NCBI GenBank assembly: GCA_965221835.1
Contig: OZ244916.1
Location: 654,477-718,476, forward strand
DNA length: 64,000 nucleotides
From: Gammaproteobacteria bacterium
Lineage (GTDB): Bacteria; Pseudomonadota; Gammaproteobacteria; Tethybacterales; Persebacteraceae
Direction: 5' to 3'
Below are positions 1,227 through 36,500 of this stretch, piece after piece. A program made the position numbers and the translations under genes. How positions within the stretch are numbered: the stretch's first letter is position 1; each line of letters starts with the position of its first letter. The notes beneath the pieces were generated by a model. It was not told the DNA's origin, made no database searches, and was given only the letters and a program-made list of their open reading frames with translations.

Positions 1227-1249
1227 AAAATTTCGCAAATCGCGGCAAC

Positions 1250-1876: not shown

Positions 1877-1939
1877 AGCAAAATGTTAAAGATCTGTTAA
1901 TTCGCTTTTTTGCGAATAATCGGCGAATTAAAATTACTG
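1877..1939 (-). promoter_or_regulatory. AT-rich CRISPR leader lying between the cas7 stop codon and the first repeat.
   Basis: This is a 63-bp AT-rich stretch sitting directly between the cas7 stop at 1940 and the leader-proximal repeat, which ends at 1876. The repeat-degeneration gradient is consistent with this orientation. Confidence 0.6.
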
Positions 1940-2834: not shown

Positions 2835-4590
2835 TGTTATTCTCCTTTTTTGTGAAAAAATTCTGCCGCTGATGATAGTAGCCGAGGGCAAACAGCCCCT
2901 GCTCCTGCATTGTCAGTTGCGGCGGGAAATTGGCGAGTTTGCACATAATTTCGCCGACGGTTTTTTGGCGATTGACGGCAAGCCCGGGTTTGGCGTCTTT
3001 TAGTTTACTCAGATGGTGTTGGTGCAATTTTATCAGCGCGGGAAATGCCGCACCCGGCGACGATGACGCCGCACCGTAATAGCGGTCGCGAATGGTGGCG
3101 TTTATGCCGGGATTCGCGTCTTCTTGCAATTTTTCCAGCGCGGCAAACAACGCGCCCAGCCAATACCCCGGCGATTTAACTTCCGGATCCAGTTTCATAT
3201 CAATCTCCTTGTTGAGTTGCAAAGCGGGCGGCAATTGTTCCGCCCGATAAAATCGGTTTATGCAACCGCGCAAAAGCGCGGCGCGGTCCGGCGAAACATT
3301 TTCGCGTCGTTCCCCGTATTTTACGCCCGCGCGGCAACGATTGACCGCCGCCAGAAATGCCGTGCGCGGATACGGCGAATTTTGCAATATCGCCTGCATC
3401 ATTTCGCCGCCCAAATTGGGCGGGATATTGTCCGCCTTGCCTTGCACCGCCGTGGCAACCAGCAAACGAAATAGCCCCGGCGGGCGGGAGTCGTCCGCGC
3501 CGTCAATTTTAATGTCGTCAAAATGCCGCCGAATTCTTTCCGCAACATCTCCTACCGTTCCGTCGTGCCAAAAACGCACCGTCAACCGCACGCGATTCGC
3601 CCACAATCCCAGCACATAAAACGGCAAATCGCCTTCCGCGGCGTATGTTTTTCCGCTTCGGGGCGATTCGTACAATTTTTTCACCGCGGCAGTCCGGCGG
3701 TCGGGATTGTCTTCGGATGCGCCGCCAAATAAAACGCTAAAATCGGTTTCCAGTAGCGCGTCCTTTCCCGCCCAAAACACGGCGGTAGAATCGCCGACCT
3801 TGATTTTTTGTTCGCCAGTCAGCAGCATATTTAACGCGGCGGTGTATTTGTACATTGTCGCTTTTCCCACGGACGCATTTTTTGCCTTTGTTTTGCCGTA
3901 CGAATTAAACGCCGATTGCTTAAACGCGATAACTCCCGCGCCCGCCCCCGCACCGTTCACGCCGCGCACCGCGTTGTGCATATCCGGTATTTCGTCTTCG
4001 TCTCCGGAAATAATGCACCGTCCGTCCGGTTTCGCCGCCGCGCCGACATTTCGTTTTATTTCCGCCGCAACCGGCGGCGAATCGGAAACTATCGCATAAT
4101 CCGAATTTGCCAACTGAAACGACAAATACGCCAGACGCAAACGTTCATCACAAATTTCCGCCCACATCGGATCGCCGCGCACCGCGTCCATATCGGGATT
4201 TTGCAGAAACGCGACAACCGCGCGAACGCCCGAATCTTCGGCGACACTCTCCGGAATTTGCGTTTGTATTTTCCGCAAAAAACTTTCGCGGCGTTTTTTT
4301 GATACGGCGGCGGATGTGCCGCCGACTCCGAAAATATATTCCAAATTGTCGTACAATAAATTCGGATTTATCGCGCTTCCGCCGCGACACGACGGTTTAA
4401 TTGCAACTCTAACCGTATACTTCCCGCCGCGGTCTTTCGCATCGGCGCGGGTATCCTTAAAACCGGCAAACTCGCCGCTTTCGTTCAACACAATCAAAAA
4501 CGGAATTGGTTGATGTTCAAATCCCAGCGGCGGCATTTCGCCGCGCAACATTTTGCGGTCGTAATATTCCGTCAACGCGCGAACAGTCAT
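2827..4590 (-). CDS. cas8c: Type I-C Cas8c (Csd1) large subunit.
   Basis: The 587-aa translation begins [41 protein letters not shown], matching Csd1. It is positioned between cas5c and cas7, as in a canonical I-C operon. Confidence 0.85.
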
Positions 4591-5237
4591 TTGCGAATTT
4601 CCGCGCTATCGGGCGGCGGCAGATGAATCACGCCGTTTTGCATTTTCGCCCGAAACATCATCGGTTTCATTTCATCGGCAAAATCAATGTCGTACAACAT
4701 AAATCCCAAATCGCGGGAGTCGTCAATCGCCGCCCGTGCCGCCGCTTTCGTTCCCGGCGTTGCCAGACAAAACGCCGCCGAAAATTCGCGACATCCCAAA
4801 TACGGCTGATTAAAACACTGCCCTTTTTCCGCCCGCCGCGCAAATATTTCGGCGAATTTAACAATGCCGTCGCCCTCGCCCGCCTTGTCGGTCAATTGCA
4901 ACCGCGCATGCAAACGATACGCCACATCGCGCAAAAACAATCCCGCCCGCTGTTGCCGGTCTTCTTCCACATAAATTCCGCAACCCGCTTTGGACGGCGG
5001 ACGCGCAACACTCCCCACTTCGTTGCGGCGAAGATTAATCCACCGAATCGGTTTTAGTACTTCAATTTTTTCGGGAATCCACCTGATTGCCGGTTTCCAC
5101 ATAATCGCCTCAAAAATCGCCCGCGCCGCGGACGGAGTCATCACATCATAAGAAACGCGTTCCACTTTCATTTCCGGGCGCGTAAAGCAGGCAAAATCGC
5201 CCCAAACTTTCAGGCAAAAAGACGGCGACGATTTCAT
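4587..5237 (-). CDS. cas5: Type I-C Cas5c (Csd5d), the pre-crRNA-processing Cas5.
   Basis: The 216-aa translation contains FCLKVWGDFACFTRPEMKVERVSYDVMTPSAARAIFEAIMWKPAIRW, the Cas5d signature. Its stop overlaps the cas8c start by 4 bp. Confidence 0.9.
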   Translation of the reverse strand: MKSSPSFCLKVWGDFACFTRPEMKVERVSYDVMTPSAARAIFEAIMWKPAIRWIPEKIEVLKPIRWINLRRNEVGSVARPPSKAGCGIYVEEDRQQRAGLFLRDVAYRLHARLQLTDKAGEGDGIVKFAEIFARRAEKGQCFNQPYLGCREFSAAFCLATPGTKAAARAAIDDSRDLGFMLYDIDFADEMKPMMFRAKMQNGVIHLPPPDSAEIRK

Positions 5238-5245
5238 AACCGCGA

Positions 5246-7510
5246 TTATACTCCGCCCCGCCCGGGAATCGCAAACCCCGTTTCGTCCGAATAATTCGCC
5301 GCGCCCGATTCCGTCAGCACAAAAACGCCCGCCGTCAATTCTTCTATTTCGCCGCGACCGCGCATTTCGTCAAAATCTTTTTCCGGCACAGAAACCGAAA
5401 ACCGTTGCAACCCGCGCATCGTTGCACGCAAACGCGCACCTTCCGCCATCTGCAACGTTTTCCGCATTTTTTCGGAACCGGTATACCAAACGATAACCGG
5501 AATTTTTCCGTCTTCTTCAATAAACCGGAACTTCGCCGCCGCATCCCGAAATTGCATCTCGTCCGAACTCAACAGCCGGGAAATTCCTTTGTCATCAAAA
5601 TTGCGAATATCCCGATACAACAATTCAAAATAGCGGCGAAACTTGTCCGGCGTAAACATATCGTCGTCCGCGGCGAACAATTGCCGCATTTCTTGCACGA
5701 CCTGCCACCCCTGACGGATAAAACCCGGCGGCGGTATTTTCGGCGGCATAAACACGCGCAACTCGCCGCCGTCCGGCAATTTTCCTTCGCGGTTGCATCT
5801 TCCCGCCGCCTGCGCAATAGAATCCAATCCCGCCAGCGCGCGCCAGACGACCGGAAAATCAATATCCACGCCCGCCTCTATCAATGTCGTACTGACGACA
5901 ATCACTGGTTCGTTATTTTTCAATCGCGCCTTGATTTTTGCAATTTGTCGCGCGCGATGTTCGCCGCACATCAGCGCGGACAAATGAAAACATTCGGCGG
6001 CACCCCGTCCGATTGCGGACATTCGCGCCTTCGTTTTTTCGTACAAATCGCGGCACTCGTTCCGGCTGTTGACGATGCAAAGCGCGGATTTGTTTTCGCA
6101 AAGTTTTACGGCGATTTCGTCCCATTCCGTTTTTGACAAATCCCAGCGCGCGCGTACGCGCCGGAATTGGTCGCGGCGGAACAATGTTTCCGGCTGTTCG
6201 CAAACTTCGCGCGGCGCGCTGTTCAACGCCGCTTTCGCTTTCCGCAACGATTCCGCCCGAAACGCCGGTTGCGTAGCGGTGCAAAAAACAAAACTCGTTT
6301 TGTAAAACGCCGTCAATTCTTCAATCGCCGCCAAAGTCGGCGCGATCAATTCCAGCGGCAACGTTTGCGCTTCGTCCAAAATAACGACCGAATCGGCGAT
6401 GTTATGCAGTTTGCGACATTTCCCCGGCGCGGCGGCGAAAAGCGATTCAAAAAATTGCACATTCGTCGTAATGACAATCGGTGCGTCCCAATTTTCGGTT
6501 GCCAGCCGATTTTTGTACGCCGCGCGGCGCGCCTGTTCGTCTTCGGATTCTTCGCCGCGAATGTTGGAATGATGTTCCACGACATTGTCGTCGCCGAAAA
6601 CGCCGCGAAAAATATCGGCGGTTTGTTCAATAATGGAAGTGAACGGAATGGCGTAAATAATTCGCCGTTTGCCGTGCGCCGCGGCATGCGCCAGCGCGAA
6701 CGCCATGGACGACAATGTTTTGCCGCCGCCGGTCGGCACCGTGAAACTGAACAATCCCGGCGACTGTTCGCCCGCCGCAACGCATTGCGTCAAAATGTCG
6801 GCGCGGATTTTGTCAATCGCCGTTTTTTCCGCGTCCGTCTTAAAACCTTTCATATAGCCGTCAAACTTTTCGCGCAACGCGGAAATTTCCGCATAATCGC
6901 CGCGCACCGGCGGAACAGGCGAAGAAGATTTTTCCGCATGCAACCGGTCGGCATCCACCAAACACGAAAACAACATTCGCGTCCACAAAGAAAGTCGAAT
7001 CCAAGAAGGGGCGTTTTCATGTCCGGTGTTGCGGCGCAAACACGCCAAACCGGGAATTGTCGCGTTGCGCACAAATTCGGGAAAATGTTTCTCGTTTTTG
7101 CGCGCCTTATCCAGCCATTCGCCTTCGCGGAAAATTCGTTCTTCCAAACTCGCGCCTTTCGCATCGCCGTCTCCGCAATTCGGCAAGCCGGTGTGATGTC
7201 CGAAAATGACAAACGACAACAACTTCGCCGCGCATTTTTCTTCCGCATTTTTTGCGAGAAAGTTTTGCGCGTACAATCCGCCCGCCGAGGAATGTTTAAT
7301 TTTTCCGCGCGGCGCATTAATTTCGCCGCGTAAATATTGTTGAAACTCATCGCCGTATTTGCCGAGGTCGTGCAATCGCCCCGCCAACGTCGCCCATTCT
7401 TTCGCGCCAAAAACGGCGGCAAATCCTCCCGCATTTTTACCGACCGAATTTAAATGTTCCGCCAAATCGCATTTGGTGTTTTCGGAAAAATGCGAAAAAA
7501 ATGTTTTCAC
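5246..7510 (-). CDS. cas3: Cas3 HD-nuclease/helicase with a GTG start.
   Basis: The 754-aa translation has an N-terminal HD domain (HDLGKYGDEFQ), a Walker A motif (VPTGGGKT) and a DEAD-like VILDEAQ motif. The GTG start lies 4 nt after the mpl stop codon. Confidence 0.9.
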   Translation of the reverse strand: MKTFFSHFSENTKCDLAEHLNSVGKNAGGFAAVFGAKEWATLAGRLHDLGKYGDEFQQYLRGEINAPRGKIKHSSAGGLYAQNFLAKNAEEKCAAKLLSFVIFGHHTGLPNCGDGDAKGASLEERIFREGEWLDKARKNEKHFPEFVRNATIPGLACLRRNTGHENAPSWIRLSLWTRMLFSCLVDADRLHAEKSSSPVPPVRGDYAEISALREKFDGYMKGFKTDAEKTAIDKIRADILTQCVAAGEQSPGLFSFTVPTGGGKTLSSMAFALAHAAAHGKRRIIYAIPFTSIIEQTADIFRGVFGDDNVVEHHSNIRGEESEDEQARRAAYKNRLATENWDAPIVITTNVQFFESLFAAAPGKCRKLHNIADSVVILDEAQTLPLELIAPTLAAIEELTAFYKTSFVFCTATQPAFRAESLRKAKAALNSAPREVCEQPETLFRRDQFRRVRARWDLSKTEWDEIAVKLCENKSALCIVNSRNECRDLYEKTKARMSAIGRGAAECFHLSALMCGEHRARQIAKIKARLKNNEPVIVVSTTLIEAGVDIDFPVVWRALAGLDSIAQAAGRCNREGKLPDGGELRVFMPPKIPPPGFIRQGWQVVQEMRQLFAADDDMFTPDKFRRYFELLYRDIRNFDDKGISRLLSSDEMQFRDAAAKFRFIEEDGKIPVIVWYTGSEKMRKTLQMAEGARLRATMRGLQRFSVSVPEKDFDEMRGRGEIEELTAGVFVLTESGAANYSDETGFAIPGRGGV

Positions 7511-7514
7511 TTTT

Positions 7515-8861
7515 TTAGATGTTTTTCACCATTTCCGCCACGGTTTGCGGGAGGTTGGCGAAGTCGCCGTTGGACATTAATATTATGCAGTCGTTTGTGC
7601 GGATTTCGTGGTGCAAGTAGTCGGCGGCGGTGGCGGCGGTCGGGAAAACTTTTGTTTTTTCGGGCGGCAGAAATGTCGCCAACCATTCTTGTTCTCCGAC
7701 TGCGACAACTTTGTGTGCCGCAGCGAAAGCGTTCGGTAAACGCGCGCGCAATGCGCCCGCTTTCATCGTGTTGGAACGCGGTTCAAACACTGCGACAATT
7801 CGTTTTTGCGGATATTCCGCCGCCGCTGCTTCCAAAGTTTTGCGGTAGGCGGTCGGATGATGTGCGAAATCGTCGTAGACCAAAATTCCGTTCGCGTCTG
7901 CAAGTTTTTGCATTCGCCGCAACGGCGGACGAAATCCTTGCAAATAATCCGGCAGTTTGCGCACATCCGCTCCCGCATAATGTGCGGCGGCAGCGGCGGC
8001 GAGAATATTGTCGCGATTCGCTTCGCCGAACATCGGCGGAACAAACGCGCACATTTCTTCGCCGCGATAATAAACGCGCATTATTTTTCCGTCTTTGTCG
8101 CGTCTTTGCCATTCGCCGCCTTTTCCGAATTGCGACAGCGGCGAATATATTCCCGCCTTCGCCGCCGCGCGCAAATAACGCGAACGGGCGCGCATAATCA
8201 CCCGCCCGTTGCCGGGAACGCAACGCAACAAATAATGAAACTGTCGCGCGATTTCGTTTTCATTACGATAAATATCTGCGTGATCAAATTCTAAATTATT
8301 TAACAACGCGATGTGCGGGCGGTAATGCAAAAACTTCGGACGTTTATCAAAAAACGCCGTGTCATATTCGTCCGCTTCAACTACAAACCATTCGGAATTG
8401 CCGCTGCGTGCGGAAACGCCGAAGTTTGGTGCGATTCCGCCTGCCAAAAATCCCGGCGACAAACCGGCGCGTTCCAAAATCCATGCCAGCAATGCTGTCG
8501 TTGTTGTTTTGCCGTGCGTGCCGGCAACCGCTAATACTTTTCTGTCGGCGAGAATATTTTCGCCAAGCCATTGCGCCGCCGAAATATACGGACGGCGTTC
8601 CGCCAACACCGATTCCACCAACGGATTGCCGCGCGAAACCGCGTTGCCGACAATATACAAATCGGCGGGACGGTCAACGACTGTCGCCTCGTATCCTTCG
8701 TATAACTTCGCGCCCGATTGTCGCGCCGCATCGCCGAAAGGCGGATAAAATGCGCGGTCGCTGCCGCAAACAGTGAATCCTTTTTCCGCCGCCAGTTGTG
8801 CAACCCCCGCTCCCAATGCGCCGGCGATTCCGATGAAATGCAAATGTTTCATCGCCGCCAA
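7515..8861 (-). CDS. mpl: UDP-N-acetylmuramate:L-alanyl-gamma-D-glutamyl-meso-DAP ligase.
   Basis: The 448-aa translation shows the Mur ligase fold, with GIAGALG and GTHGKTTTT motifs and an Mpl-like C-terminus. Confidence 0.9.
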   Translation of the reverse strand: MAAMKHLHFIGIAGALGAGVAQLAAEKGFTVCGSDRAFYPPFGDAARQSGAKLYEGYEATVVDRPADLYIVGNAVSRGNPLVESVLAERRPYISAAQWLGENILADRKVLAVAGTHGKTTTTALLAWILERAGLSPGFLAGGIAPNFGVSARSGNSEWFVVEADEYDTAFFDKRPKFLHYRPHIALLNNLEFDHADIYRNENEIARQFHYLLRCVPGNGRVIMRARSRYLRAAAKAGIYSPLSQFGKGGEWQRRDKDGKIMRVYYRGEEMCAFVPPMFGEANRDNILAAAAAAHYAGADVRKLPDYLQGFRPPLRRMQKLADANGILVYDDFAHHPTAYRKTLEAAAAEYPQKRIVAVFEPRSNTMKAGALRARLPNAFAAAHKVVAVGEQEWLATFLPPEKTKVFPTAATAADYLHHEIRTNDCIILMSNGDFANLPQTVAEMVKNI

Positions 8862-9526
8862 AGCGGTTTGATTCCGGTATCTTTTTCCATCGCATCCAAA
8901 AATAATTCGTGTGCGGCAAGTTCTGTTGCAGACGGCGCGCGCGAAATAATTTTTTTCGCTTGCAAAATATCTTTTGCTTTTGCACCGCGCGACATACTCA
9001 TCGCGATTTGTTCACGCGTCATTGCAAAATAAACTTGCGCCAAAAGACGGGCGTCCAAAAGCGCGCTGTGTGTTGTGCGTTCCGAATCGTCAACGCCGAA
9101 ATGTTTGCATAAATCTTCCAAACGATGATGCCGAAGTCCTTGGTTTTTTAGACGCGACATTTCCAAAGAACATGTTATTTTGCAAATATCTTCCAGCGGC
9201 GGCATTCCGCATATTTTAAATTCTGAATTTAAAAATCCTTTGTCAAAAGCGGCGTTGTGAATAATGACTTCGCCGCCTTGCAAAAAGTTTTGCAATTGTT
9301 CTGCAATTTCCGAAAAATCCGGTTTGTCCGCCAAAAACTCATCGGAAATGCCATGTACTTTTTTTGCGTCCGCATCAATAGCGCGATGCGGATTGCAGAA
9401 AAAATGTATACTTTCAAACGCGTTCGTGCGGCGGTCGGGATAGGTCAGGGCGACGACTTCCACGATGCGATGTCCGCGTTCCACTTCCAAACCGGTAGTT
9501 TCGGTATCCAAAAAAATTTGTCTCAT
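8849..9526 (-). CDS. dnaQ: DNA polymerase III epsilon subunit (3'-5' exonuclease). The true start is the internal ATG at 9526 of the longer listed ORF.
   Basis: The translation begins [13 protein letters not shown] and contains HNAAFD. This gives a 225-aa product. The upstream extension of the listed ORF overlaps rnhA. Confidence 0.9.
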
Positions 9527-9960
9527 TGTTGTGCCGCCTCGCTTGCGCCCCGGTTTGCCAAATTGTCCGCCGCTTCGTTGCCGTCGTTGCCCGCATGCCC
9601 TTTCAGCCACCGCCATTCCACGCGATGACGCATCGCTGCTTGTTTTAGCAACTTCCACAAATCTGCATTTTTTATCGGGCGTTTTTTGGCGTTGAGAAAT
9701 CCGCGCCGTTCCCAATTCGGCAACCATTCGGTAATTCCTTTTTGCAAGTACGCGGAATCGGTATACAACACCACTTCGCATTCGCGTTTTAACGATTCCA
9801 GCGCGCGAATTGCGGCGCACATTTCCATCCGATTGTTGGTTGTGTCGCGTTCGCCGCCGTACAATTCTTTTTTCGTTTCGCCCCAATACAATACCGCCCC
9901 CCAGCCGCCGGGACCGGGATTGCCTTTGCATGCGCCGTCCGTATAAATCACAACTTTCAT
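9523..9960 (-). CDS. rnhA: Ribonuclease HI.
   Basis: The translation begins [21 protein letters not shown] and runs to DNLANRGA, 145 aa. Its stop overlaps the dnaQ start by 4 bp. Confidence 0.9.
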
Positions 9961-10658
9961 CGCCGGCACTCCGCTTTTGCTTTGGACGGCGCACGCCAGA
10001 ACGGAATGCGGCGATGACGCAAACGCCGAATCATTCGCATCCCGCAAGTATATTTTGTCGCGCTTAAAATATAAACGCCGCCGGCAAGCGGCCACCATCG
10101 CCGTCCGGCTTTTTCCATCCAGCCGAACCATTTACGATGACGGCGGCGATGCGGCGGCATAAACGCCGCGAATTGTCCTTCTTCGGCGGATAAATTCAAC
10201 AGCGTCAACCAATCTTTAACGCGCATCAGCGAAATCCAGTTTTTGCGCCACGGCATTACCGAAATCCGCGCACCCAACAAACTCCACGGATTGAATCCTA
10301 TAACCAACAGCCGCCCGTGCGGACGCAACACCCGCGCCGCTTCGCGCAATACTTCGTGCGGCGCACCGGATGCTTCCAAAGCGTGCGCAAGAACGATGCA
10401 ATCTACCGATTCCGCGGCAAACGGCAATGCCGTCCAGTCGGCGACAATGCTGCAATCGCGATTGACGCCGACAATCGCATGACTGCGCACCGGCACGCGC
10501 AAAATGCGGCGGCGATAACCGAGTTGCAACGCATAAAATCCGAACACTTCGCCGCTCATCATCCGGCAGCAACGCATTTCTTGCGCCATTATGCCGCGCC
10601 CGAATTCGGACGCGAACCAGTTTTCGGATTTGTTTTCGCCGGCGGATTGTATTAACAT
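9957..10658 (-). CDS. Class I SAM-dependent methyltransferase. The start is uncertain: M1 at 10658 or M24 at 10589.
   Basis: The translation contains a VLDLACGTG-like methyltransferase type 11 region ([23 protein letters not shown]...[11 protein letters not shown]). It sits downstream of rnhA, as in other Neisseria genomes. Confidence 0.7.
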
Positions 10659-19367: not shown

Positions 19368-20290
19368 TTCGCGCGCTGGCGCTCGCCGGTCCGACAGCAT
19401 GCGGCAAAAGCGCGTTCGCGCCGACTCTCGCCGCCGCATTCGGCGGAGAAATTATCAGCGTCGATTCGGGCGCGGTCTATCGCGAAATGGATATCGGCAC
19501 CGCAAAACCGCCCGCCGAATTGCGCGCGCGTCTGCCGCATCATTTGGTGGATGTGTGCGCGCCGGACGAACCGTTTAATGTCGGAATGTTTTGTCGTCTC
19601 GCAACGGCGGCGGCGAAAGAAGTTTGCGCGCGCGGTGATGTACCGATTTTTGTCGGCGGCGCGATGATGTATTTTAATGCGCTCGTTCGCGGACTGCACG
19701 ATTTTCCCGAAATAACCGCCGAAATCCGCGACACCGTGCGCGAAATGATGCGACAAAACGGCGCGCCCGCAATGCATCAAAAATTGGCGGCGTTAGATTC
19801 GCGGGCGGCAGAAAAAATTCTCATCACCGATTCGCAGCGAATCGCGCGCGCGATGGAAATCGCAATGCAAACGCGCCGTTCGCCATCCGATTTTATCGCA
19901 GGCGCAACACCGCCGCCGCAACTAAATTTAACTTTCGTTTTTTTGTCGCCCGCAAATCGCACACCGTTGCGCGATTCTATCGCCGCACGACTCGCGCAAA
20001 TGTGGACGAACGGACTCGTCGACGAAACCGAACAGGTAATGCGCAAATACAAACTACCGCCGCAATCGCCGCCGTTGCGAATGGCGGGCTATCGTCAAGC
20101 GGCGGCGTTTTTGCGCGGCGAAACAAGCGAAAGCGAAATGCGCGAACACGCCCTTTTCGCCACCCGCCAACTCGCCAAGCGACAAATGACATGGATTCGC
20201 AACTGGAAAACCCCCGCCACAATCATCGACCCGTTCACACCAAACTCCGAAAAACAAATCCTCTCCGCATTTCACAAATTTTCAGATTAA
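19364..20290 (+). CDS. miaA: tRNA dimethylallyltransferase.
   Basis: The translation begins MIRALALAGPTACGKSAFA (P-loop). It overlaps the mutL stop by 4 bp. Confidence 0.9.
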   Translation: MIRALALAGPTACGKSAFAPTLAAAFGGEIISVDSGAVYREMDIGTAKPPAELRARLPHHLVDVCAPDEPFNVGMFCRLATAAAKEVCARGDVPIFVGGAMMYFNALVRGLHDFPEITAEIRDTVREMMRQNGAPAMHQKLAALDSRAAEKILITDSQRIARAMEIAMQTRRSPSDFIAGATPPPQLNLTFVFLSPANRTPLRDSIAARLAQMWTNGLVDETEQVMRKYKLPPQSPPLRMAGYRQAAAFLRGETSESEMREHALFATRQLAKRQMTWIRNWKTPATIIDPFTPNSEKQILSAFHKFSD

Positions 20291-20398
20291 TAAAAAATTT
20301 TAAATTAACGAAATTTTATTTATTTCGCCAAAGCGAACCGTTTTTATGATTTTGCAAAATCGGTTAAAATAGTGTTTTTACTTTTCGGAGAAATATCA

Positions 20399-21046
20399 AT
20401 GAAACTCAAAACTATTCTTTTCCCGCTTTTCGCCGCCGCACTGATGACGGTTGCGCCGTCTACATTCGCGCAAACCAAAGAAAAGAAAGCAATTGCTGCC
20501 CCGTTCGGTCTCAAATGGGGACAGTCCAAAGACGAAATTCGCGCGTTGGGCGTGAAGTTTGGTATCGTTAATATTTTCGGTTTCACATCTACTGATAAAT
20601 GTACCGATGAAGGCGCGTACGAATATTGTATTACAAATTCGCTTCCCAAAAATATAGAGAATGTATATTTCTATCGCCTTACGATTAATCCGAAATACGG
20701 GCTGATAGAAGTGTATTATGAATCCGAGAGTTTCGTTAACGATTCGTATGGGACGCACGGAAAAGAAGCATATCAGCGGATAAAAGATTTCATATCCGCG
20801 AAGTACGGTGCGCCGATATCAGAAGAATATGAGGGAGGAACAGAACTTTCCTCTAATAAATATTTTTATGAATGCTTGGAAAATGAAAAATGCGGACAAT
20901 GGCGTTCTGATTGGGAGGGAACTAATGACGGATTCATTCAACTTCGGCTATATCCCGAAAGCGATGACGGAGGTTCATTATCATTATTTTATGTTTCGCC
21001 CGATTATTCCAAAGCGGAAAATGAACACGCGGCGGACGCTTTTTAA
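20399..21046 (+). CDS. Hypothetical secreted protein. The gene is noticeably AT-rich.
   Basis: A signal peptide, MKLKTILFPLFAAALMTVAPSTFAQ, is present. An RBS (ggag) and an AT-rich promoter region lie upstream. There is no recognisable domain. GC content is lower than in flanking genes. Confidence 0.6.
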   Translation: MKLKTILFPLFAAALMTVAPSTFAQTKEKKAIAAPFGLKWGQSKDEIRALGVKFGIVNIFGFTSTDKCTDEGAYEYCITNSLPKNIENVYFYRLTINPKYGLIEVYYESESFVNDSYGTHGKEAYQRIKDFISAKYGAPISEEYEGGTELSSNKYFYECLENEKCGQWRSDWEGTNDGFIQLRLYPESDDGGSLSLFYVSPDYSKAENEHAADAF

Positions 21047-22762: not shown

Positions 22763-22897
22763 TGTTTCATATTATAAGAAACAATCGGCAAAAATTTGGA
22801 ATTTCCGCCGATTTTTTCGGGTATAATATCATTTTCTACGGGCGGAAAATGGTTTCCGTCCGGGATTCCATCAACTCTCAAAAAGGAGAATAAAATA

Positions 22898-23218
22898 ATG
22901 AAAAAGAAAACTATGGCATTTATGCCGATTATCGCCGCCTTTGCTTTGGCGGGTTGTGCAACGCCGCATGTCGTTGAGGAAACGAAAACTTCGGACAAGG
23001 ATTTGTCTTGCACATCTCTGCAGTCCGAAATTGACGAAGCCAAGCGATTTGAACAACAGGCGCGGGAAGAAAAAGGGTTTACCGGCACGAATGTCGCGGC
23101 GGGACTTCTCTTTTGGCCGGCAATTATCGGCACCTATGCCAACGCCAACGAGGCGATAGAAGCGGCGCAGGAACGGCAAGAACATCTGTTGAAAATCTTC
23201 AACGAAAAGGATTGCTAA
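22898..23218 (+). CDS. Small lipoprotein, paralogue 1.
   Basis: A lipobox (FALAGCATPHVVEETKTSDKDLSCTSLQSEI) is present. A strong RBS (aaaggag) lies upstream. The product is 106 aa. Confidence 0.65.
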   Translation: MKKKTMAFMPIIAAFALAGCATPHVVEETKTSDKDLSCTSLQSEIDEAKRFEQQAREEKGFTGTNVAAGLLFWPAIIGTYANANEAIEAAQERQEHLLKIFNEKDC

Positions 23219-23652
23219 TGTATATCCGCAAAACCTTGATTCGTTTTGCGGGCGTTTCGGCGGCGGCGGCGGTTTTCATCGCCCTCGCCGGTTGCGCGAC
23301 TCCGCATGTCGTAGACGAGATAAAAATATCCGACCGCGATTTAAATTGTGACGCGCTTGATTCCGAAATTCGGAAATCCCGGGAACATTGGAGAACCGCG
23401 GAAAATGAACGGGAATCAACAACCGCGTCTGTTGTTTTTAACGGCATACTTTTTCCGCCGATGTTTTTGTTTTTGCCCGCCTCTATCGCTCTGGATAGCG
23501 CGAGCAATTCCAACATTGAAGAGGCGAAAAACGCCGCAAACAAACGGGAAGCGCATCTTCGGGATTTGTATAATAAGAAAAAATGCAATGAAAAAAAGGC
23601 GCGCGATGCCGAACGCACTTGGCCGACAAAAAATTCGAAAGAAGGGGAATAA
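23218..23652 (+). CDS. Small lipoprotein, paralogue 2.
   Basis: The ATG overlaps the upstream stop (TAATG). A lipobox (IALAGCATPHVVDEIKISDRDLNCDALDSEI) is present. The N-terminus is homologous to the upstream gene. Confidence 0.65.
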   Translation: MYIRKTLIRFAGVSAAAAVFIALAGCATPHVVDEIKISDRDLNCDALDSEIRKSREHWRTAENERESTTASVVFNGILFPPMFLFLPASIALDSASNSNIEEAKNAANKREAHLRDLYNKKKCNEKKARDAERTWPTKNSKEGE

Positions 23653-23667
23653 TTTGCCTTTTCGGAG

Positions 23668-23714
23668 GCAACAAAAACCGGCGGGGATTCCGTTTCCCCG
23701 CCGTTTTTTGTTGC
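23668..23714. terminator. Bidirectional intrinsic terminator. It is identical to the hairpin at 11544-11582.
   Basis: The sequence GCAACAAAAACCGGCGGGGATTCCGTTTCCCCGCCGTTTTTTGTTGC forms an extended palindrome with A/T tracts on both sides. Confidence 0.7.
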
Positions 23715-24077
23715 ATTCGTCTCCCGATTCCATTTCCGCCCAATTTATCATTCCCGCGAACGCGGGAATCTATTATGAGAGACAAATTCGCGCTTTCACC
23801 TCGTTTTTTGCGAAAAAATGCGGAAATTTCAAATTTAATTTTCGCATAAAATTCGCGGGAATTTCAAACTTAATCTCCCTTCCCGCTTTCGCAAGAATGA
23901 CGAATTTTTTTCGTTCGCAAACGCGCGAATCTCTGCGCAAACAGTGGAAATTTTTGTTTCGCGGAATTTTCTTGGTCTTTGCAAATAAAAAAATAACGAA
24001 AACGTTTTTCGGTTTTTTGGGAAATTAAAAAAATTTCCGTTTTTGTCAAAAAACACGAAAATGCCGAAAAAAAATCG
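23715..24077. repeat. NIME-like repeat block made of dRS3 (ATTCCCGCGAACGCGGGAAT) and RS-like units.
   Basis: ATTCCC-N8-GGGAAT elements are present. RS-like units (gaaatttcaaatttaattttcgc...) are shared with the array at 56658-57776. Confidence 0.7.
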
Positions 24078-25166
24078 TCATTCCCCGCCGTCCGCATCGG
24101 CGAGGGCGTTTAGTACTTCGTCCAAATCGCCTTCTATTACGGCGGGGAGTTTGTACAGAGTTAAGCCGATTCGGTGGTCGGTGATTCTGCCTTGCGGAAA
24201 GTTATAAGTGCGAATTCGTTCGGAACGGTCGCCGCCGCCGACAAGTGCGCGGCGTTCGCCCGCTTCTTTTTCGCGGCGTTCGCGGCGTTTTTGTTCTGCG
24301 ACTCGCGCATGCAAAACCGCTAACGCGCGTTCGCGATTTTTGTGTTGCGAACGGTCGTCCTGACATTCAACAACCGCACCGGTCGGCAAATGCGTAATTC
24401 GCACGGCGGAATCGGTCGTGTTGACATGCTGTCCGCCCGCACCGGACGAACGAAAAGTTTCAATGCGCAAATCGGCGGGCGAAATATGCACATTGTCTTC
24501 GGGTGCGGATTCGGGCATTACCGCAACGGTCGCAACCGAAGTATGAATGCGTCCTTGCGATTCGGTATCGGGAACGCGTTGTACGCGATGCGCACCCGAT
24601 TCGTATTTGAGTTTTCCGTAGACGCCGCCGCCGCCGATGCGGGCGATGATTTCTTTGTAGCCGCCAATTTCACCTGCGGCGGATGAAACAATTTCGGCGC
24701 GCCATTTTTGCGATTCGGCGTATCGCGAATACATGCGAAATAAATCGCCCGCAAAAAGACACGATTCCACGCCGCCGACCGCCGCGCGAATTTCCAAAAA
24801 ACAACTGCGCGAATCGTTTTCCGATTCCGGCGCAAAAAGACGGCGCAAAGTTTTCGTTAAAGTTTCGCATTGCGCGACAAGGGCGTCGCATTCTTCGCCG
24901 GCGATTGCGCCGAGTTCGGGATCGTTTTGCATTTCGCGCAACTCGCAAATTTTGGTTTGCGCGGCGCGCCATTGCCGATATTTGTCCGTTGCGGGCAGCA
25001 GTTTTCCATATTCTTCCGATAACGCCTGCCATTCTTCGCGCCCGGGTTGCGCCGCCATTTTATTTTCCAAAATCGTCCGCCGCGCATTTAACGCATCAAG
25101 TTTTTCTTGCACTTTCGGCGGCAATATACGATTTCGCACATTTTGCAAAGAATCAGAATCTGTCAT
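24078..25166 (-). CDS. prfA: Peptide chain release factor 1.
   Basis: The translation contains GGQHVNTT and the RF1-type RTYNFPQGRITDHRI motif. It is 362 aa. Confidence 0.9.
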   Translation of the reverse strand: MTDSDSLQNVRNRILPPKVQEKLDALNARRTILENKMAAQPGREEWQALSEEYGKLLPATDKYRQWRAAQTKICELREMQNDPELGAIAGEECDALVAQCETLTKTLRRLFAPESENDSRSCFLEIRAAVGGVESCLFAGDLFRMYSRYAESQKWRAEIVSSAAGEIGGYKEIIARIGGGGVYGKLKYESGAHRVQRVPDTESQGRIHTSVATVAVMPESAPEDNVHISPADLRIETFRSSGAGGQHVNTTDSAVRITHLPTGAVVECQDDRSQHKNRERALAVLHARVAEQKRRERREKEAGERRALVGGGDRSERIRTYNFPQGRITDHRIGLTLYKLPAVIEGDLDEVLNALADADGGE

Positions 25167-25273
25167 TAAGCAATTGTATCAAAAATCCCACATCCGAAGT
25201 TGGTGTTTGATTCCCGCTTTCGCGGAAATGACGAGTACTTATTATTTCGCCCCCGCCGCCCGTCATTCCCGCA

Positions 25274-26599
25274 TTAGATATATCCGAGTTCGTGCAGCCG
25301 TTTGCGGGCGTTTTCCATTGTGCGCGTTGATTTAATGGTGTTGCACGAACCGCAAAGAAGTTGCAAATTTCCGTCCACATCCGGACCGCCTTTTGCGCGG
25401 GGAATAATATGATCTAAATGAAAATAACGCGGTTCAAAATGGTGTTTGCAAAGATTGCAATTACCCCCCTGTCGTCCGTACAAAATTTGGCGAATATCCC
25501 GGCTGCGGATTTGTTTATAATCGGTGCGCATCGGGCAGTCGTTTTTAATGTTGCGGTGATGCACTTTCCGCTCGCCTTCGCCGAGTTTGCCTTTTTCGGT
25601 TTCCGATTTCAGCCGGGCTTTTACCAAACTTGCCGCCTTTTCGGCAACATCAATTCCAATCCATTTTCGGTCCAATCTTTCGGCGGCGATGCAAGTTGTC
25701 GCGCAACCGCAAAACGGATCAATAACCAAATCGCCTTCGTTGGAGGATGCAAGAACGATTCTTTCCAAAAGCGCGAGTGGTTTTTGCGTCGGGTATCCGG
25801 TGCGTTCGGGGGAATTCGGACCGAATGTAATTTCCCACCAATCTTCCGGAACTTTTCCCGCCGAATGCCGTGCCGCCAATTTTTCGGGCGGATCCCCCTT
25901 CCATATTCCGGATCCTCCGCGATTTCTTTCGGGGATATTTTTCCGTTCGGGCATGCGGGAAAGTTTGTAAGGCACGCGAACGGAATCGGCGTTAAAAACA
26001 TAATTCTCCGTTTTGCTATACCGGAAAATTAAGTCATGTTTTCGCGGAAAATCTTTTTTTGCGCTGCTTGTTGACGCATAACACCAGACAATTTCGTTGC
26101 GAAAATTGTTGTCGCCAAAAACAATATCCATAAGAAGTTTCAGCGAATGCGACATCGTCGGGTCGCAATGCAAATAAATGCTGCCGGTCGGTTTCAGCAG
26201 TCGCCGCATTTCCATCAATCGCGCCGCCATAAACGATAAATACGCCATTTCCGCATTGCCAACGATTTCGCCCATCGTTTCCAAAAAGCGCACGATTTTT
26301 TTCGCCGTTGCGCCGTCTATCAGCGGATTCCCGTCCGCCGCCGCCGCAATCAATTCGTCAAACGCATACAACTCCGCGTACGGCAAATACGGATTTTTTT
26401 CGTCCGCCGCGCTGTCCCAACCCCAAATATCCTTAAATCCAAACTCGGCGGAACCGCCTTTTCCAATCGGAAAAACAAACTTTTTATTGAACGGCGGATC
26501 TAGATAAATTAAATCCACCGTTTCGGAATTCATCGCGCGCATCACCTCCAAATTGTCGCCAGTAAACAAAGTCCGATTTTCTATCTGTTTTTTACTCAT
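25274..26599 (-). CDS. DNA methyltransferase (beta-class N6-adenine/N4-cytosine family, DPPF motif) fused to a C-terminal HNH nuclease domain. This is copy 1.
   Basis: The translation contains DLIYLDPPFN (motif IV), then ERTGYPTQKP and VIDPFCGCATT (motif I), then C-terminal CNLCKHHFEPRYFHLDHIIPRAKGGPDVDGNLQLLCGSCN (HNH). The start is placed at MSKKQIENR, which has an RBS (aaaagga). Confidence 0.8.
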   Translation of the reverse strand: MSKKQIENRTLFTGDNLEVMRAMNSETVDLIYLDPPFNKKFVFPIGKGGSAEFGFKDIWGWDSAADEKNPYLPYAELYAFDELIAAAADGNPLIDGATAKKIVRFLETMGEIVGNAEMAYLSFMAARLMEMRRLLKPTGSIYLHCDPTMSHSLKLLMDIVFGDNNFRNEIVWCYASTSSAKKDFPRKHDLIFRYSKTENYVFNADSVRVPYKLSRMPERKNIPERNRGGSGIWKGDPPEKLAARHSAGKVPEDWWEITFGPNSPERTGYPTQKPLALLERIVLASSNEGDLVIDPFCGCATTCIAAERLDRKWIGIDVAEKAASLVKARLKSETEKGKLGEGERKVHHRNIKNDCPMRTDYKQIRSRDIRQILYGRQGGNCNLCKHHFEPRYFHLDHIIPRAKGGPDVDGNLQLLCGSCNTIKSTRTMENARKRLHELGYI

Positions 26600-26757
26600 A
26601 ACATTCCTTTTCAATTCCGATATCCGCAAAAACTAATTATACCCGAATCCCGCCGCCGTTAAATGGTAATCGTGCGGGGTGATTTTCATTGTTCATCATT
26701 TCCGTGGCGGGCGGAGTCGGGGGCTTAATGGTGGGAAGATTTGTTTTGGTCATTTTT

Positions 26758-27774
26758 TTATTCGCCGTGCAAAATTCGTGTTTCGCGTTTTTCCCACCAT
26801 AAGCAAAACTCGTGTACATGGCGGGTGATGATTTCGTCTGCTGCTGTTGTTGCCGCCCGTCTTGCTGTTTGCGATTGTTCGGCTTGTTTTCCTAACTGTT
26901 CTAGCGTGTAGACAAACGCGCCGGATAGTTTGGCGATTTCGGGTTCTAAATCGTGCGGGACGCCCAAATCGGCGAATACGATTGGCGTGCGGCGGATCAT
27001 TAATGCGTGTTCGGCGGCGCCTTTTCCGATAATCGGCAGCGGGCTGGCGGTTGCGGAAATGACGATGTCAAACTGCGGCAGCATTTCTGGTACGCGCGAC
27101 AATGCAATCATTTCGCCGCCCGCTTGTGCGGCGAGTTCTTCCGCGCGTTCGGGCGTTCGTCCGGCGACGGCGATTCGGCGAACGCCCCTTCCGGCAAAAA
27201 TCGGAATGCCGGAACGGGTCATATCTCCGGTGCCGATAAATAAAACCGAAAGGCGCGAAAAATCGGGGAAAATGCCCGCCGCAGCGCGCGCGACCAATCC
27301 GCTGTATGAAACCGAACGCCGTCCGATGTCGGTGCGGGTGCGCACTTCTTTGGCGGCGGCGAGGGATTTTTCTAACAGGCGATTGACGAAAACGCCGGAA
27401 GTTCCGGCATCGCGCGCGATTTGGGCGGCGCGTTTGACTTGTCCGGTTATTTCGGTTTCGCCCAAAATTTGCGATTCTATTCCGCTGGCGATGCAGAATG
27501 CGCGGCGGACTGCATCTTTTGCGCGAACGCAAAATAACGCATTTTCGCTGCCGTTTGCTAACCATCGCGCGACTTCGTCGGGGCGGTCGGTGAGGCAATA
27601 AATTTCGGTGCGGTTGCAAGTAGAAAGCACCGCCGCCTCGCTGGCAATTCCGGAAACGAGTTGACGCAATTTTTGGGCGGCGGAATCGGCGGAAATTCCG
27701 ATAACTTCGCGCAACGCCCGCGGCGACATCCGAAAATCCGCGCCGATAGAAAACAAGTTTGATATTTCGCCCAT
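26758..27774 (-). CDS. hemA: Glutamyl-tRNA reductase, apparently 3'-truncated. The product is 338 aa against about 415 expected.
   Basis: The translation contains LSTCNRTEIYC and NAD-binding motifs. The N-terminus aligns from MGEISNLFSIGADFRMSPRALREV. The protein ends at WWEKRETRILHGE, which is where the roughly 80-aa C-terminal dimerisation region normally continues. Confidence 0.75.
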   Translation of the reverse strand: MGEISNLFSIGADFRMSPRALREVIGISADSAAQKLRQLVSGIASEAAVLSTCNRTEIYCLTDRPDEVARWLANGSENALFCVRAKDAVRRAFCIASGIESQILGETEITGQVKRAAQIARDAGTSGVFVNRLLEKSLAAAKEVRTRTDIGRRSVSYSGLVARAAAGIFPDFSRLSVLFIGTGDMTRSGIPIFAGRGVRRIAVAGRTPERAEELAAQAGGEMIALSRVPEMLPQFDIVISATASPLPIIGKGAAEHALMIRRTPIVFADLGVPHDLEPEIAKLSGAFVYTLEQLGKQAEQSQTARRAATTAADEIITRHVHEFCLWWEKRETRILHGE

Positions 27775-27839
27775 CGCGTTAATTATACAAAAATATGCGG
27801 CACTTGCGGAAGAAGCAAAACGGCGGCACTTCCTCGCCC

Positions 27840-27950
27840 ATGACATTTTTCGGGTGAGAACAGCCGCAAAAGTTTACTGCTACAAAACCCGGCATTTTCC
27901 GCAACTGATAAAACGGGCGGCGTAAACTCCGCCTTTTGCGGGAATGAAAA
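27840..27950. repeat. Partial, diverged copy of the MITE-like element found at 41968-42118.
   Basis: The sequence is about 80% identical to the internal part and right end of the 41968-42118 element, in inverted orientation. The short translated ORFs share AENxGFCSSKLLRL. Confidence 0.55.
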
Positions 27951-34793: not shown

Positions 34794-34930
34794 GATAAAT
34801 TTTTTTTTCGAACATTTTCGGATAAATTAAATTTGCACCATTTCCGCAACTCGTTTTTTATAGATAAATTTTTTTCGGACATTTTCGGATAAAATTAAAT
34901 TTGCACCATTTCCGCAACTCGTTTTTTATT
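34794..34930. repeat. Direct tandem duplication of a 68-bp unit. The two copies carry T9 and T7 homopolymer tracts.
   Basis: Two near-identical units read gataaat(T7-9)cg(a/g)acattttcggataaa(a)ttaaatttgcaccatttccgcaactcgtttttta. They are followed by a TATAAT box at about 34947. Confidence 0.8.
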
Positions 34931-34957
34931 CGCGGCGAAATTTATTATAATAGCGAA

Positions 34958-35135
34958 ACCACATCACGCGAGATCTTTCCGACTCTGTCGGGTGGCTCGT
35001 GAATACAATACCCGATAACGGAGGGAATAATTAACCCGCCGGGGGAATAAACGGGGACATTCAGGAAGGTCTGCGTGTGATGTGGTAATCCTCCCGACTT
35101 TTTGGGGGACTTTGTCATTACCGCAAAGGACTACT
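34958..35135 (+). promoter_or_regulatory. Long structured 5' leader of the second MTase-HNH gene. A long-range stem (ACCACATCAC at 34958-34967, GTGATGTGGT at 35067-35076) encloses about 100 nt. The leader shows partial sequence similarity to the leader of copy 1.
   Basis: A 10-bp perfect long-range inverted repeat is present, with internal hairpins (CCGACTCTGTCGG). The motifs CCGACTC and TAACGG.GGG.ATAATT also occur in the leader of copy 1, which spans 26757-26600 on the minus strand. Confidence 0.4.
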
Positions 35136-36461
35136 GTGAACCAAGCGCAAATAGAGAACCGGACTCTGTTTACCGGCGACAATTTGGAAGTGATGCGCGC
35201 CGTCAATTCCGAGACGGTGGATTTGATTTATCTGGATCCGCCGTTTAACAAAAAATTCGTTTTTCCGATTGGAAAAGGCGATTCCGCCGAATTCGGATTT
35301 AAAGATATTTGGGGATGGGATAGCGCACCGGATGAAGGCAATCCGTATTTGCCGTACGCGGAGTTGGCGGCGTTTGACGAACTTGTGGCGGCGGAAGCGG
35401 ACGGCAATCCGTTAATAGACCGCAAGATGGCGAAAAACACCGTCCGCTTTTTGGAAACGATGGGACAAATCGCCGGCGAAGCGGAAATGGCGTATTTGTC
35501 GTTTATGGCGGCGCGTTTAATTGAAATGTGGCGGTTGCTGAAACCGACCGGCAGCATTTATTTGCACTGCGACCAAACAATGTCGCACTCGCTTAAACTT
35601 TTGATGGATATTGTTTTCGGTGAAAATAATTTCCGCAACGAAGTTATTTGGTGTTATGTCGGTGGCGGAAACGCAAAAAACGCTTTTAACAAAAAACATG
35701 ACACGGTCTTTTTTTACACGAAACAAAAAAATCGTTCGTTTTTTAATTGGAAAGATGTTGCTATGCCATATAATAATATTCCGCTTACGGCGCAATGGCG
35801 CAAAGGGTTTACAAACAGACAAGAAGCGGAAAAACGCGCCTTGGCAAAATATAAAGATGGCAAAGCGCGATATGATTGGTGGACGGATATTCCATCTTAT
35901 GGAACGGCTACGCGGAATCCCGAAAGAACCGGCTACCCGACTCAAAAACCGGTTTTGCTTTTGGAAAGAATCATAAAAGCGTCCAGCAACGAAGGCGATT
36001 TTGTTCTTGACCCGTTTTGCGGATGCGCGACAACTTGCGTTGCCGCCGAAAGATTAAACCGCCATTGGTGCGGAATTGATGTTGCCGAAAAAGCGGCGCA
36101 ACTCGTTCGCGCCCGCCTTCTTGCCGAAACAAAACAAGGCAAACTCGGCGACAAAGTACCGCAAGTGCATCACCGCGATTTCGGCAAAGGCGATTTTCCG
36201 ATGCGCACCGATTTGGGCGATTCGCGCAGTAAAAATATCCGCATAGTTTTGTTTGGAAATCAGGAAGGCAAATGCAATCTTTGTAAACGCCGTTTTGATT
36301 TGCGCGATTTTGAGGACGATCATATTATTCCGCGCAAAAAAGGCGGACCGGATGTTGACCGCAATTTGCAATTGCTTTGCAGTTCGTGCAACCGAATTAA
36401 ATCCACGCGCACAATGGAACAAGCCCGCAAACGACTGCGCGAATTGGGATACGCCGCTTAA
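35136..36461 (+). CDS. DNA methyltransferase (DPPF, beta-class) fused to a C-terminal HNH nuclease. This is copy 2, with a GTG start.
   Basis: It is about 70% identical at the protein level to the 25274-26599 product. The N-terminal 200 aa are near-identical, and the DNA is about 85-90% identical there. HNH motif: CNLCKRRFDLRDFEDDHIIPRKKGGPDVDRNLQLLCSSCN. An RBS (aaagga) lies 5 nt before the GTG. Confidence 0.8.
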   Translation: MNQAQIENRTLFTGDNLEVMRAVNSETVDLIYLDPPFNKKFVFPIGKGDSAEFGFKDIWGWDSAPDEGNPYLPYAELAAFDELVAAEADGNPLIDRKMAKNTVRFLETMGQIAGEAEMAYLSFMAARLIEMWRLLKPTGSIYLHCDQTMSHSLKLLMDIVFGENNFRNEVIWCYVGGGNAKNAFNKKHDTVFFYTKQKNRSFFNWKDVAMPYNNIPLTAQWRKGFTNRQEAEKRALAKYKDGKARYDWWTDIPSYGTATRNPERTGYPTQKPVLLLERIIKASSNEGDFVLDPFCGCATTCVAAERLNRHWCGIDVAEKAAQLVRARLLAETKQGKLGDKVPQVHHRDFGKGDFPMRTDLGDSRSKNIRIVLFGNQEGKCNLCKRRFDLRDFEDDHIIPRKKGGPDVDRNLQLLCSSCNRIKSTRTMEQARKRLRELGYAA

Positions 36462-36500
36462 AACGGAATCGGATTTACGCGGCGGGAAATTCCGATTTTT
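36462..36500 (+). terminator. Intrinsic terminator: GGAATCGG ... CCGATTCC hairpin followed by T5.
   Basis: A hairpin and a T-run lie immediately after the stop of the MTase-HNH copy 2. This is a convergent gene end. Confidence 0.55.

Follow-up and report, generated by a model that had tools for sequence, protein, structure and literature searches.

Restriction–modification (R–M) enzymes of Type IIC/IIG, such as MmeI, Eco57I, BpuSI and the atypical BtgZI, carry a nuclease and a methylase in one chain. Canonically, the PD-(D/E)XK nuclease is N-terminal, the methylase is of the gamma class and the specificity domain lies at the C-terminus; BtgZI is an exception, with an alpha-class methylase and a C-terminal PD-(D/E)XK variant (PMC4081073). 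In such combined enzymes one specificity module serves both activities, so that specificities and recognition modules diversify freely, as in the MmeI family; several paralogues may be present in one genome, and some members have no separate methylase (PMC4081073). Here we describe a gene encoding a methyltransferase (MTase)–HNH nuclease fusion, of which two copies are present in a 64,000-nucleotide (nt) stretch of a Persebacteraceae genome of the order Tethybacterales (contig OZ244916.1, positions 654,477 to 718,476; hereafter the window). Copy 1 lies between hemA and prfA. The encoded protein resembles the Type IIC/IIG enzymes in that nuclease and methylase form one polypeptide, in which a single specificity module would serve both. 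In contrast to them, it has a beta-class methylase at the N-terminus, an internal recognition region and a C-terminal HNH domain, and the canonical build is not found here.

The methylase part itself is similar to M.RsrI, M.BceJIV, CcrM, M.MboIIA and the Mod subunits of Type III systems (EcoP15I, Mbo45V) in its fold, its motif order and the variable region between conserved halves. However, none of these enzymes has a nuclease domain, and Type III Mod pairs with a Res helicase-nuclease. No ResIII/helicase gene was found in the window or among the commonest neighbour families of the homologues described below, and the locus is thus not a Type III system.

Two kinds of mobile gene also resemble the locus. 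Free-standing HNH homing genes, such as mobE of phage T4 (“intronless homing”), are solitary HNH open reading frames (ORFs) between packed conserved genes, with sporadic occurrence and empty sites, as observed here. In contrast, those genes have no methylase, reside in phage genomes and co-convert their flanks, whereas the gene described here lies in cellular chromosomes and its flanks are unconverted. The minimal mobile elements of Neisseria are gene cassettes, often with R–M genes, that are exchanged between fixed flanking genes. As in those elements, the same pair of genes here encloses different contents or nothing at all, mobility genes are lacking and dRS3-like palindromes lie nearby. 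However, the Neisseria model needs recombination in the flanking genes, and the invariant block reported below stops at the cassette. A 2025 review of host-dependent restriction mentions HNH for modification-dependent enzymes only, and the order of beta-class methylase, internal recognition region and C-terminal HNH is found neither there nor in PMC4081073.

Domain architecture of the fusion and comparison of the two copies

Pfam searches of copy 1 assigned PF01555 (N6_N4_Mtase) to residues 38-336 (E 1.6e-49) and PF01844 (HNH) to residues 391-435 (E 3.8e-12). The latter domain has rounded E-values of 4e-12 in copy 1 and 1e-13 in copy 2. PF14279 also matches the C-terminus (E 5e-10), and PF01844 and PF14279 together span residues 391-445. 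An alternative TTG start at 26629, 30 nt upstream of the ATG, would extend the protein to 451 amino acids. The motifs are in beta-class order, since DPPF (motif IV, residues 34-37) stands ahead of DPFCGCATT (motif I, residues 294-302), and the variable region lies between these two methylase motifs at residues ~175-265. This central unmatched stretch occupies the position at which beta-class enzymes and Type III Mod carry the target-recognition domain.

Foldseek and sequence searches identified M.RsrI, M.BceJIV, CcrM, M.MboIIA and Type III Mod subunits as nearest to the methylase, with a Foldseek probability of 1.00 for RsrI, BceJIV and CcrM. The HNH part matched Gmet_0936 (PDB 4h9d), the nuclease domain of a group II intron maturase and the HNH of IscB/Cas9 in sequence. 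No solved structure spanning the full length was found (query-normalised template modelling score of at most 0.47). The AlphaFold2 model, with a predicted local distance difference test score (pLDDT) of 79 and a predicted template modelling score of 0.81, is confident except in the recognition region and two loops. These results suggest that the N-terminal part is an amino-methyltransferase of the beta class (Mod/RsrI/CcrM-like), whose recognition region is embedded between two conserved halves, and that a linker of ~45 residues ties it to a putative zinc-stabilised HNH nuclease.

An alignment of 33 diverse homologues, with a lowest identity of 48%, revealed that D34-P35-P36-F37, YPTQKP and DPFCGCAT are invariant in 33 of 33 sequences. 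The same is true of C381, C384, D396, H397, N411, C416, C419, N420 and K423 in the HNH domain. These residues include a catalytic His with Asp/Asn and two CxxC pairs, as in beta-beta-alpha-metal nucleases, and the signature CxxC...DH...N...CxxC-N-K is intact in copy 1 and copy 2. The initial annotation of this DNA, made by reading the sequence, had proposed a beta-class methyltransferase fused to a C-terminal HNH nuclease, with a second copy elsewhere in the window, and had named degeneracy of the HNH motif in both copies as a result that would count against its proposal. Pfam domains and motif order now confirm the fusion in both copies, and neither HNH motif is degenerate.

By tblastn, these two are the only copies in the 64-kilobase (kb) window. 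Their proteins have the same architecture and are 67% identical (307/455). At the nucleotide level, blastn aligned the N-terminal parts (26587-26033 with 35148-35702; 555 nt, 83%) and the C-terminal parts (25810-25281 with 35919-36451; 530 nt, 76%), and no match was found in the central ~220 nt or in any flank of the two loci. The 3.2-Mb contig that contains the window also encodes a third paralogue, P0016, with 67% identity to copy 1 and a different central region. The copy 1 protein is identical to P0001, whose 90% cluster consists of one sequence on 7 contigs, and copy 2 has 98.4% identity to P0007, the representative of a cluster of 8 member sequences. The composition of both genes is foreign to their surroundings: the GC content is 0.48 in copy 1 and 0.47 in copy 2, against 0.515-0.595 in 11 of the 12 listed neighbouring genes. 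The twelfth, an ion-channel gene beside copy 2, is also at 0.47.

The hemA–prfA junction and the invariant block

Copy 1 is flanked upstream by hemA (26758-27846; GlutR_N and Shikimate_DH) and downstream by prfA (24078-25166; PCRF and RF-1), and all three genes are on the minus strand. HemA homologues placed the host close to Candidatus Persebacteraceae in the order Tethybacterales. We compared the hemA locus in eight related lineages (L085/86, L087, L088, L089, L090/91, L092, L098 and L099/100). The junction was empty in five of them. The gap between hemA and prfA was 7 nt in L089 (HemA 76% identical, upstream synteny kept), 3 nt in L090/L091 (HemA 67%), L088 (65%) and L099/L100 (60%), and 1 nt in L092 (Persebacteraceae Df01, 63%). 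The region was rearranged in L087 and L098. The junction was filled in the window, in four further strain genomes (L001-L004) and in L085/L086 (HemA 79%). The occupant in L085 is placed exactly between the TAA of hemA and the ATG of prfA; it shares only 41% identity with copy 1, falls into another subfamily, and its leader and trailer are unrelated. HemA and PrfA identities group L085 with the empty L089 as sisters (85%) and place the window lineage as their outgroup (76-79%). Because a filled and an empty lineage are sisters and the occupants differ, the simplest history would be that different family members entered one spacer independently, in at least two insertion events. These junctions show that copy 1 is not ancestral here but was inserted into a hemA-prfA(-prmC-fpg) cluster whose genes are normally contiguous.

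The homology of the window flanks to the relatives ends at 26785 on the hemA side and resumes at 25069 on the prfA side. The ancestral start of prfA, an ATG in five aligned relatives, is ATA in the window (25125-25127), where prfA may start at an ATG 39 nt upstream (25166, +13 residues) or at a TTG (25122-25124). The window hemA has no C-terminal GlutR_dimer domain, and its protein stops just past WWEKR. The same dimerisation tail is absent from L088, L090 and L099, the junctions of which are empty, and other relatives have full proteins of 386-398 amino acids. The absence of the tail in empty-site genomes indicates that the insertion did not cause its loss, and a truncation of hemA by the insertion was thus ruled out. 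A tblastn extension of hemA beyond its stop codon was weak and was judged to be noise.

The strain-level comparison covered five genomes (the window and L001-L004), which come from two or more assemblies. Each of L001-L004 was 97.8-98.4% identical to the window in hemA and 98.7-98.9% in prfA. Variable columns among the five strains amounted to ~2.9% across 5.6 kb of flanking genes and to ~14% in the non-coding leader and trailer. In contrast, a block of 1406 nt around the copy 1 ORF showed no variable column, against ~41 expected. This block is made up of 57 nt upstream of the ATG, with a TATAAT (26636-26641) and a ribosome-binding site, the ORF, and 23 nt past the stop codon. Variable sites begin directly outside it, at 26657 and 25250. 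The octamer GCGGCGGG, of which the window has 53 occurrences over the two strands, forms each end of the block. Among the five strains, all four pairings of left and right flank haplotypes were observed. In a control pair, L093/L094, the protein was identical, yet the genes had 9 synonymous differences, which indicates that retrieval by exact protein does not force nucleotide identity. Our reading is that precisely the promoter-plus-ORF unit has spread, or been converted, across the strains very recently, and that the older surrounding insert DNA has diverged normally. An assembly artefact seems an unlikely source of the invariant block.

No transposase, integrase, phage or plasmid gene was found within 6 kb of copy 1, and neither convincing terminal inverted repeats nor a classical target-site duplication was found there. 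The direct repeat at the ends of the invariant block is limited to the 8-nt octamer, and the unit is therefore neither an insertion sequence nor a transposon in the usual sense. Homologues 65-70% identical were found at other loci, between genes for an ABC ATPase and an FRG/TPR protein, and between acpP-fabF and lutA. Since unrelated members occupy one junction, close homologues lie at other loci and the zero-diversity cassette is common to the strains, the reading of the gene as a mobile single-gene unit is well supported by these comparisons. The initial annotation had anticipated much of this: a gene with a leader of roughly 160 nt (158 nt by our count), inserted between normally contiguous hemA and prfA, and possibly mobile as a single gene. 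The empty sites in five related lineages also speak against a vertically inherited gene at this place, which it had named as the contrary outcome. Its statement that the copies sit in conserved operon junctions held for copy 1, where empty sites are known, and is shown for copy 1 only.

Family members, recognition regions and competing explanations

The fusion belongs to a large family. All 8000 scored candidates had E<=1e-5, which sets a lower bound of 8000 homologues, and both domains were present in 118 of the top 120. In P0052, a sibling with 59% identity, a T5orf172/MUG113-type nuclease domain replaces the HNH. A scan of one genome per species confirmed at least 582 loci, and the analyses of distant loci given here cover the best 80 of these. 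By name, the best 80 are mostly metagenome-assembled genomes (MAGs) associated with sponges, from many phyla (Poribacteria, Dehalococcoidia, Acidobacteriota, Alpha- and Gammaproteobacteria, Nitrospirales and a Nitrosopumilus), and a few are symbionts of termite-gut protists. The Tethybacterales are sponge symbionts. Carriage by phages or plasmids was ruled out, because the homologues there were almost all of the methylase part only: at a query coverage of at least 80%, there were matches in 0 of 50,697 phages and 1 of 72,556 plasmids, and a full-length match was seen in 5 of the best 80 viral contigs.

A census of neighbouring genes at the 80 loci, based on crude ORF calls (77 upstream and 78 downstream nearest neighbours scanned), identified no recurrent restriction, helicase or control gene as a partner. 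The neighbours fell into 92 families upstream and 86 downstream, most of them seen once or twice, and included Hsp70, chorismate synthase, DnaA, a class II tRNA synthetase, glutamine synthetase and COX1. The most frequent neighbour was a further MTase–HNH gene (8 cases), and an IS1595-type transposase came second (6 cases). Both neighbours were co-directional with the gene at 37 of the 80 loci, often with gaps of a few nt.

The recognition region is shuffled among family members. Head-to-tail arrays were found in L025 (five genes, 3082-10167), L054 (four, 4472-10347) and L016 (three, 27-3738). Within these arrays the N- and C-terminal parts are 98-100% identical and the central regions 22-48%, and in L025 consecutive genes adjoin, stop codon to start. 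At one locus, the alleles P0004 and P0009 differ in the recognition region, and the central-region type of copy 1 recurs on a different scaffold in P0033 and P0036.

We favor, as somewhat better than an even bet, the explanation that the gene encodes a stand-alone enzyme and moves as a minimal cassette, entering intergenic spacers by recombination. We infer that the protein has both nuclease and methylase activity, that the two are coupled, and that the enzyme serves in defence. Each gene would be a complete single-chain R–M enzyme, in which one recognition region guides the methylation of host sites and the HNH cut at unmethylated ones. A swap of this region would change both specificities together, according to the logic of Type IIC/IIG but with different parts. 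The constant scaffolds with swapped recognition regions are our main reason for preferring such a single-chain enzyme. As to transfer, a cassette with its own promoter and ORF may have entered the 1-7 nt hemA–prfA spacer, and a different member the same spacer in a neighbouring lineage. The cassette would spread by recombination of the bare unit, a mode that we propose because no transposase, integrase or terminal inverted repeat is present, and one allele would very recently have replaced all others in the co-existing strains.

Several results weigh against this explanation. The block ends are sharp and identical in all five strains, unlike those left by ordinary flank-mediated recombination, which would not stop at identical nucleotides in each strain. 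The promoters were assigned by eye, and a consensus promoter scan gave no excess over shuffled sequences and called neither TATAAT. The PADLOC library matched the methylase part only, and full-text literature searches yielded no description of an MTase–HNH fusion. Moreover, a fused enzyme cannot delay restriction relative to methylation on entering a new host, and its establishment would need a control that the proposed mechanism does not account for.

The recurrent use of one spacer and the invariant block bring homing into consideration. In a homing-type gene drive, the HNH would cut an unoccupied or unmethylated allele, such as the bare hemA–prfA junction, repair would copy the cassette, and the methylase would protect the carrier, so that the gene would be primarily selfish and defence secondary. 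The free-standing homing endonuclease genes of phage T4 sit alone between conserved genes, as does copy 1, which is likewise sporadic and has empty sites in relatives. A drive of this kind would suit the presence of two distantly related members in the same spacer of separate lineages, the nucleotide identity of the block between diverged flanks, and the four flank combinations, which look as though the cassette alone was copied in repeatedly. The HNH is of the group II intron, IscB and Cas9 type, and P0052 carries its T5orf172/MUG113 nuclease-type domain in the same position. However, homing normally co-converts flanks, and at this locus no DNA is more variable than the flanks. The insertion sites differ family-wide, as the neighbour families show, and the diversified recognition regions of the arrays are better suited to defence than to homing at a specific site. 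Bacterial chromosomes also seldom meet within a cell, and phages and plasmids hardly ever carry the fusion. We therefore consider such a drive unlikely. A combination of the two ideas, to which we give slightly less credence still, is a self-propagating “homing R–M” cassette bounded by GCGGCGGG: the HNH would break unmethylated, unoccupied or older alleles, the methylase would shield carriers, and repair would copy exactly the cassette. This would explain both the recurrent capture of the hemA–prfA junction and the nucleotide-identical copy in diverged strains.

The lack of a separate restriction gene, the co-directional position among housekeeping genes in many genomes and the kinship with the regulatory CcrM would also suit an orphan methylase with an epigenetic or repair-linked role, in which the HNH would nick or clamp DNA during strand marking, recombination or repair. 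Such a housekeeping role does not fit the patchy presence among close relatives, the several paralogues with different recognition regions in one genome (copy 1, copy 2 and P0016), the tandem arrays or the foreign composition, and we hold it to be as doubtful as the self-propagating cassette. Far more improbable is that the gene descended vertically as part of the hemA-prfA operon, or that it was left behind by a prophage or plasmid. Copy 1 is indeed co-directional with hemA and prfA and present in five of five strains; however, the empty sites in five related lineages refute this view, and L085 has a different occupant. A remnant, furthermore, is at odds with the absence of phage, plasmid, integrase and transposase genes nearby and with two window copies that have full catalytic motifs, of which the copy 1 protein is identical in every strain compared.

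If active as we propose, the stand-alone enzyme would represent a very abundant, uncharacterised single-chain R–M architecture. Sponge metagenomes have been described as enriched in PF01555 and in PF01844 (PMC12284385), and the MTase–HNH family could account for part of both signals. The natural arrays, with identical scaffolds and swapped recognition regions, may serve as a ready-made set for programmable specificity. Recurrent insertion into one spacer, together with the zero-diversity cassette, would provide a concrete system for studying how bare genes spread among symbionts with no mobility functions. If instead the self-propagating cassette were the true explanation, it would be a minimal selfish element of an undescribed kind and a driver of the excess of methylase and HNH domains in the sponge microbiome.

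The leader of copy 2 and other features of the window

The initial annotation had described the leaders of the two copies as related. This was not borne out: a forced alignment gave 59% identity, the blastn match was confined to the coding sequence, and the sole resemblance, read from the sequence, was the short promoter-proximal string GCGGCG-N8/9-TATAAT. Folding compared with shuffled sequences gave z -4.1 for the leader of copy 2 (~160 nt) and z +0.29 for that of copy 1, which is unstructured. At the gathering threshold, Rfam identified two tRNAs only in the window; at a relaxed threshold, nothing meaningful was found in the copy 1 leader. The copy 2 leader matched sRNA-Xcc1 (RF02221) with 22.8 bits (E 0.14), below the gathering score of 53. 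The two have a common core, AAUACAAUACCCGA...GGGGAAU and the GUCGGGUGG/CCNCCCGRC pairing, which suggests distant relatedness only. sRNA-Xcc1 is located upstream of the symE toxin gene in Xanthomonas integron cassettes (Rfam RF02221). Both RNAs thus precede a gene for a DNA-damaging protein, predicted as such in the case of copy 2. In contrast to sRNA-Xcc1, the copy 2 leader has an extra outer helix of ~20 base pairs, and copy 1 has no such leader.

Homologues of this leader were found upstream of the P0004/P0009 genes (L093-L095) and of a small unrelated ORF in L097. RNAalifold predicted the ~20-base-pair outer helix, with compensatory changes in 16 of 28 predicted pairs. GUCGGGUGG has alternative partners, one local and the other CCNCCCGRC beyond the outer helix, and this alternative pairing suggests a possible switch or pseudoknot. 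A covariance model built from four homologous leaders found the leader upstream of the gene in none of the 80 distant loci, and a structured leader was thus rejected as a family-wide feature. One extra match, in L081, lies ~4 kb from the gene on the opposite strand. An exact search with the core pattern gave no viral contig and a single metagenome contig, in which a small unrelated ORF follows the pattern. Given its absence at the 80 loci, the copy 2 leader is apparently an optional regulatory module and does not define the family.

At copy 2, GCGGCG lies 8 nt before TATAAT, and GCGGCGGG lies 18 nt past the stop codon in a hairpin loop. A consensus terminator scan was not above chance. Between rfbA and the copy 2 promoter, at 34798-34929, an A/T-rich unit of 64 nt is present twice in tandem with a period of 68 nt. 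The coordinates of all features are given in Table 1.

Table 1. Features of the MTase–HNH loci and of the remaining window
Feature	Position	Strand	Remarks
MTase–HNH copy 1 ORF	25274-26599	-	441 amino acids counted from ATG; Pfam PF01555 and PF01844/PF14279
Copy 1, N-terminal conserved methylase half	26033-26599	-	Motif IV DPPF, helical insert, motifs as far as NEIVWCY
Copy 1, hypervariable centre	25811-26032	-	Presumed target-recognition domain; no DNA match to copy 2; low pLDDT
Copy 1, C-terminal methylase part and linker to HNH	25430-25810	-	TGYPTQKP, motif I DPFCGCATT
Copy 1, HNH nuclease domain	25295-25429	-	Residues 391-435, PF01844
Invariant block	25251-26656	-	1406 nt, no variable column in five strains (~41 expected)
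Copy 1 leader	26600-26757	-	158 nt; last 57 nt only inside the invariant block; 90-97% identity between strains
Copy 1 trailer	25128-25273	-	Hairpin arms 25261-25272 and 25222-25233; dRS3-like palindrome 25210-25229; ends at ancestral prfA start
MTase–HNH copy 2 ORF	35136-36461	+	GTG start; recognition region 35703-35918 differs from copy 1
Structured 5' leader RNA of copy 2	34950-35112	+	Preceded by TATAAT 34946-34951; putative distant sRNA-Xcc1 relative
Hairpin then T-run after copy 2	36467-36497	+	GCGGCGGG in loop, 36479-36486
dRS3-like palindromes	25210-25229, 23750, 43677, cluster 56756-57700		
cas3	5246-7510		
cas5d	4587-5237		
csd1/cas8c	2827-4590		
cas7	2205-2891		
CRISPR array	1312-1880		9 repeats GTTTCAATCCACACCCGCCCAAATGGACGGGTGAAT, period 65-66 nt

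The dRS3-like palindrome of Neisseria, ATTYCC-N8-GGRAAT (for example CGTCATTTCCGCGAAAGCGGGAATC), is present in ten copies in the window, in both orientations. Near-identical matches of 22-36 nt were found in L009, L019 and L083, which are symbiont MAGs of other phyla, and in L089 and L093-95. Two islands, at 22840-24058 and 20241-21039, are almost wholly different among the five strains. The former lies between prfA and prmC, genes that overlap or abut in L085, L088 and L092, and contains two small lipoprotein-like ORFs (22796-23218 and 23113-23652). The window also contains a type I-C CRISPR-Cas locus (1312-7510), in which there is no space for cas4, cas1 or cas2 between cas7 and the array.

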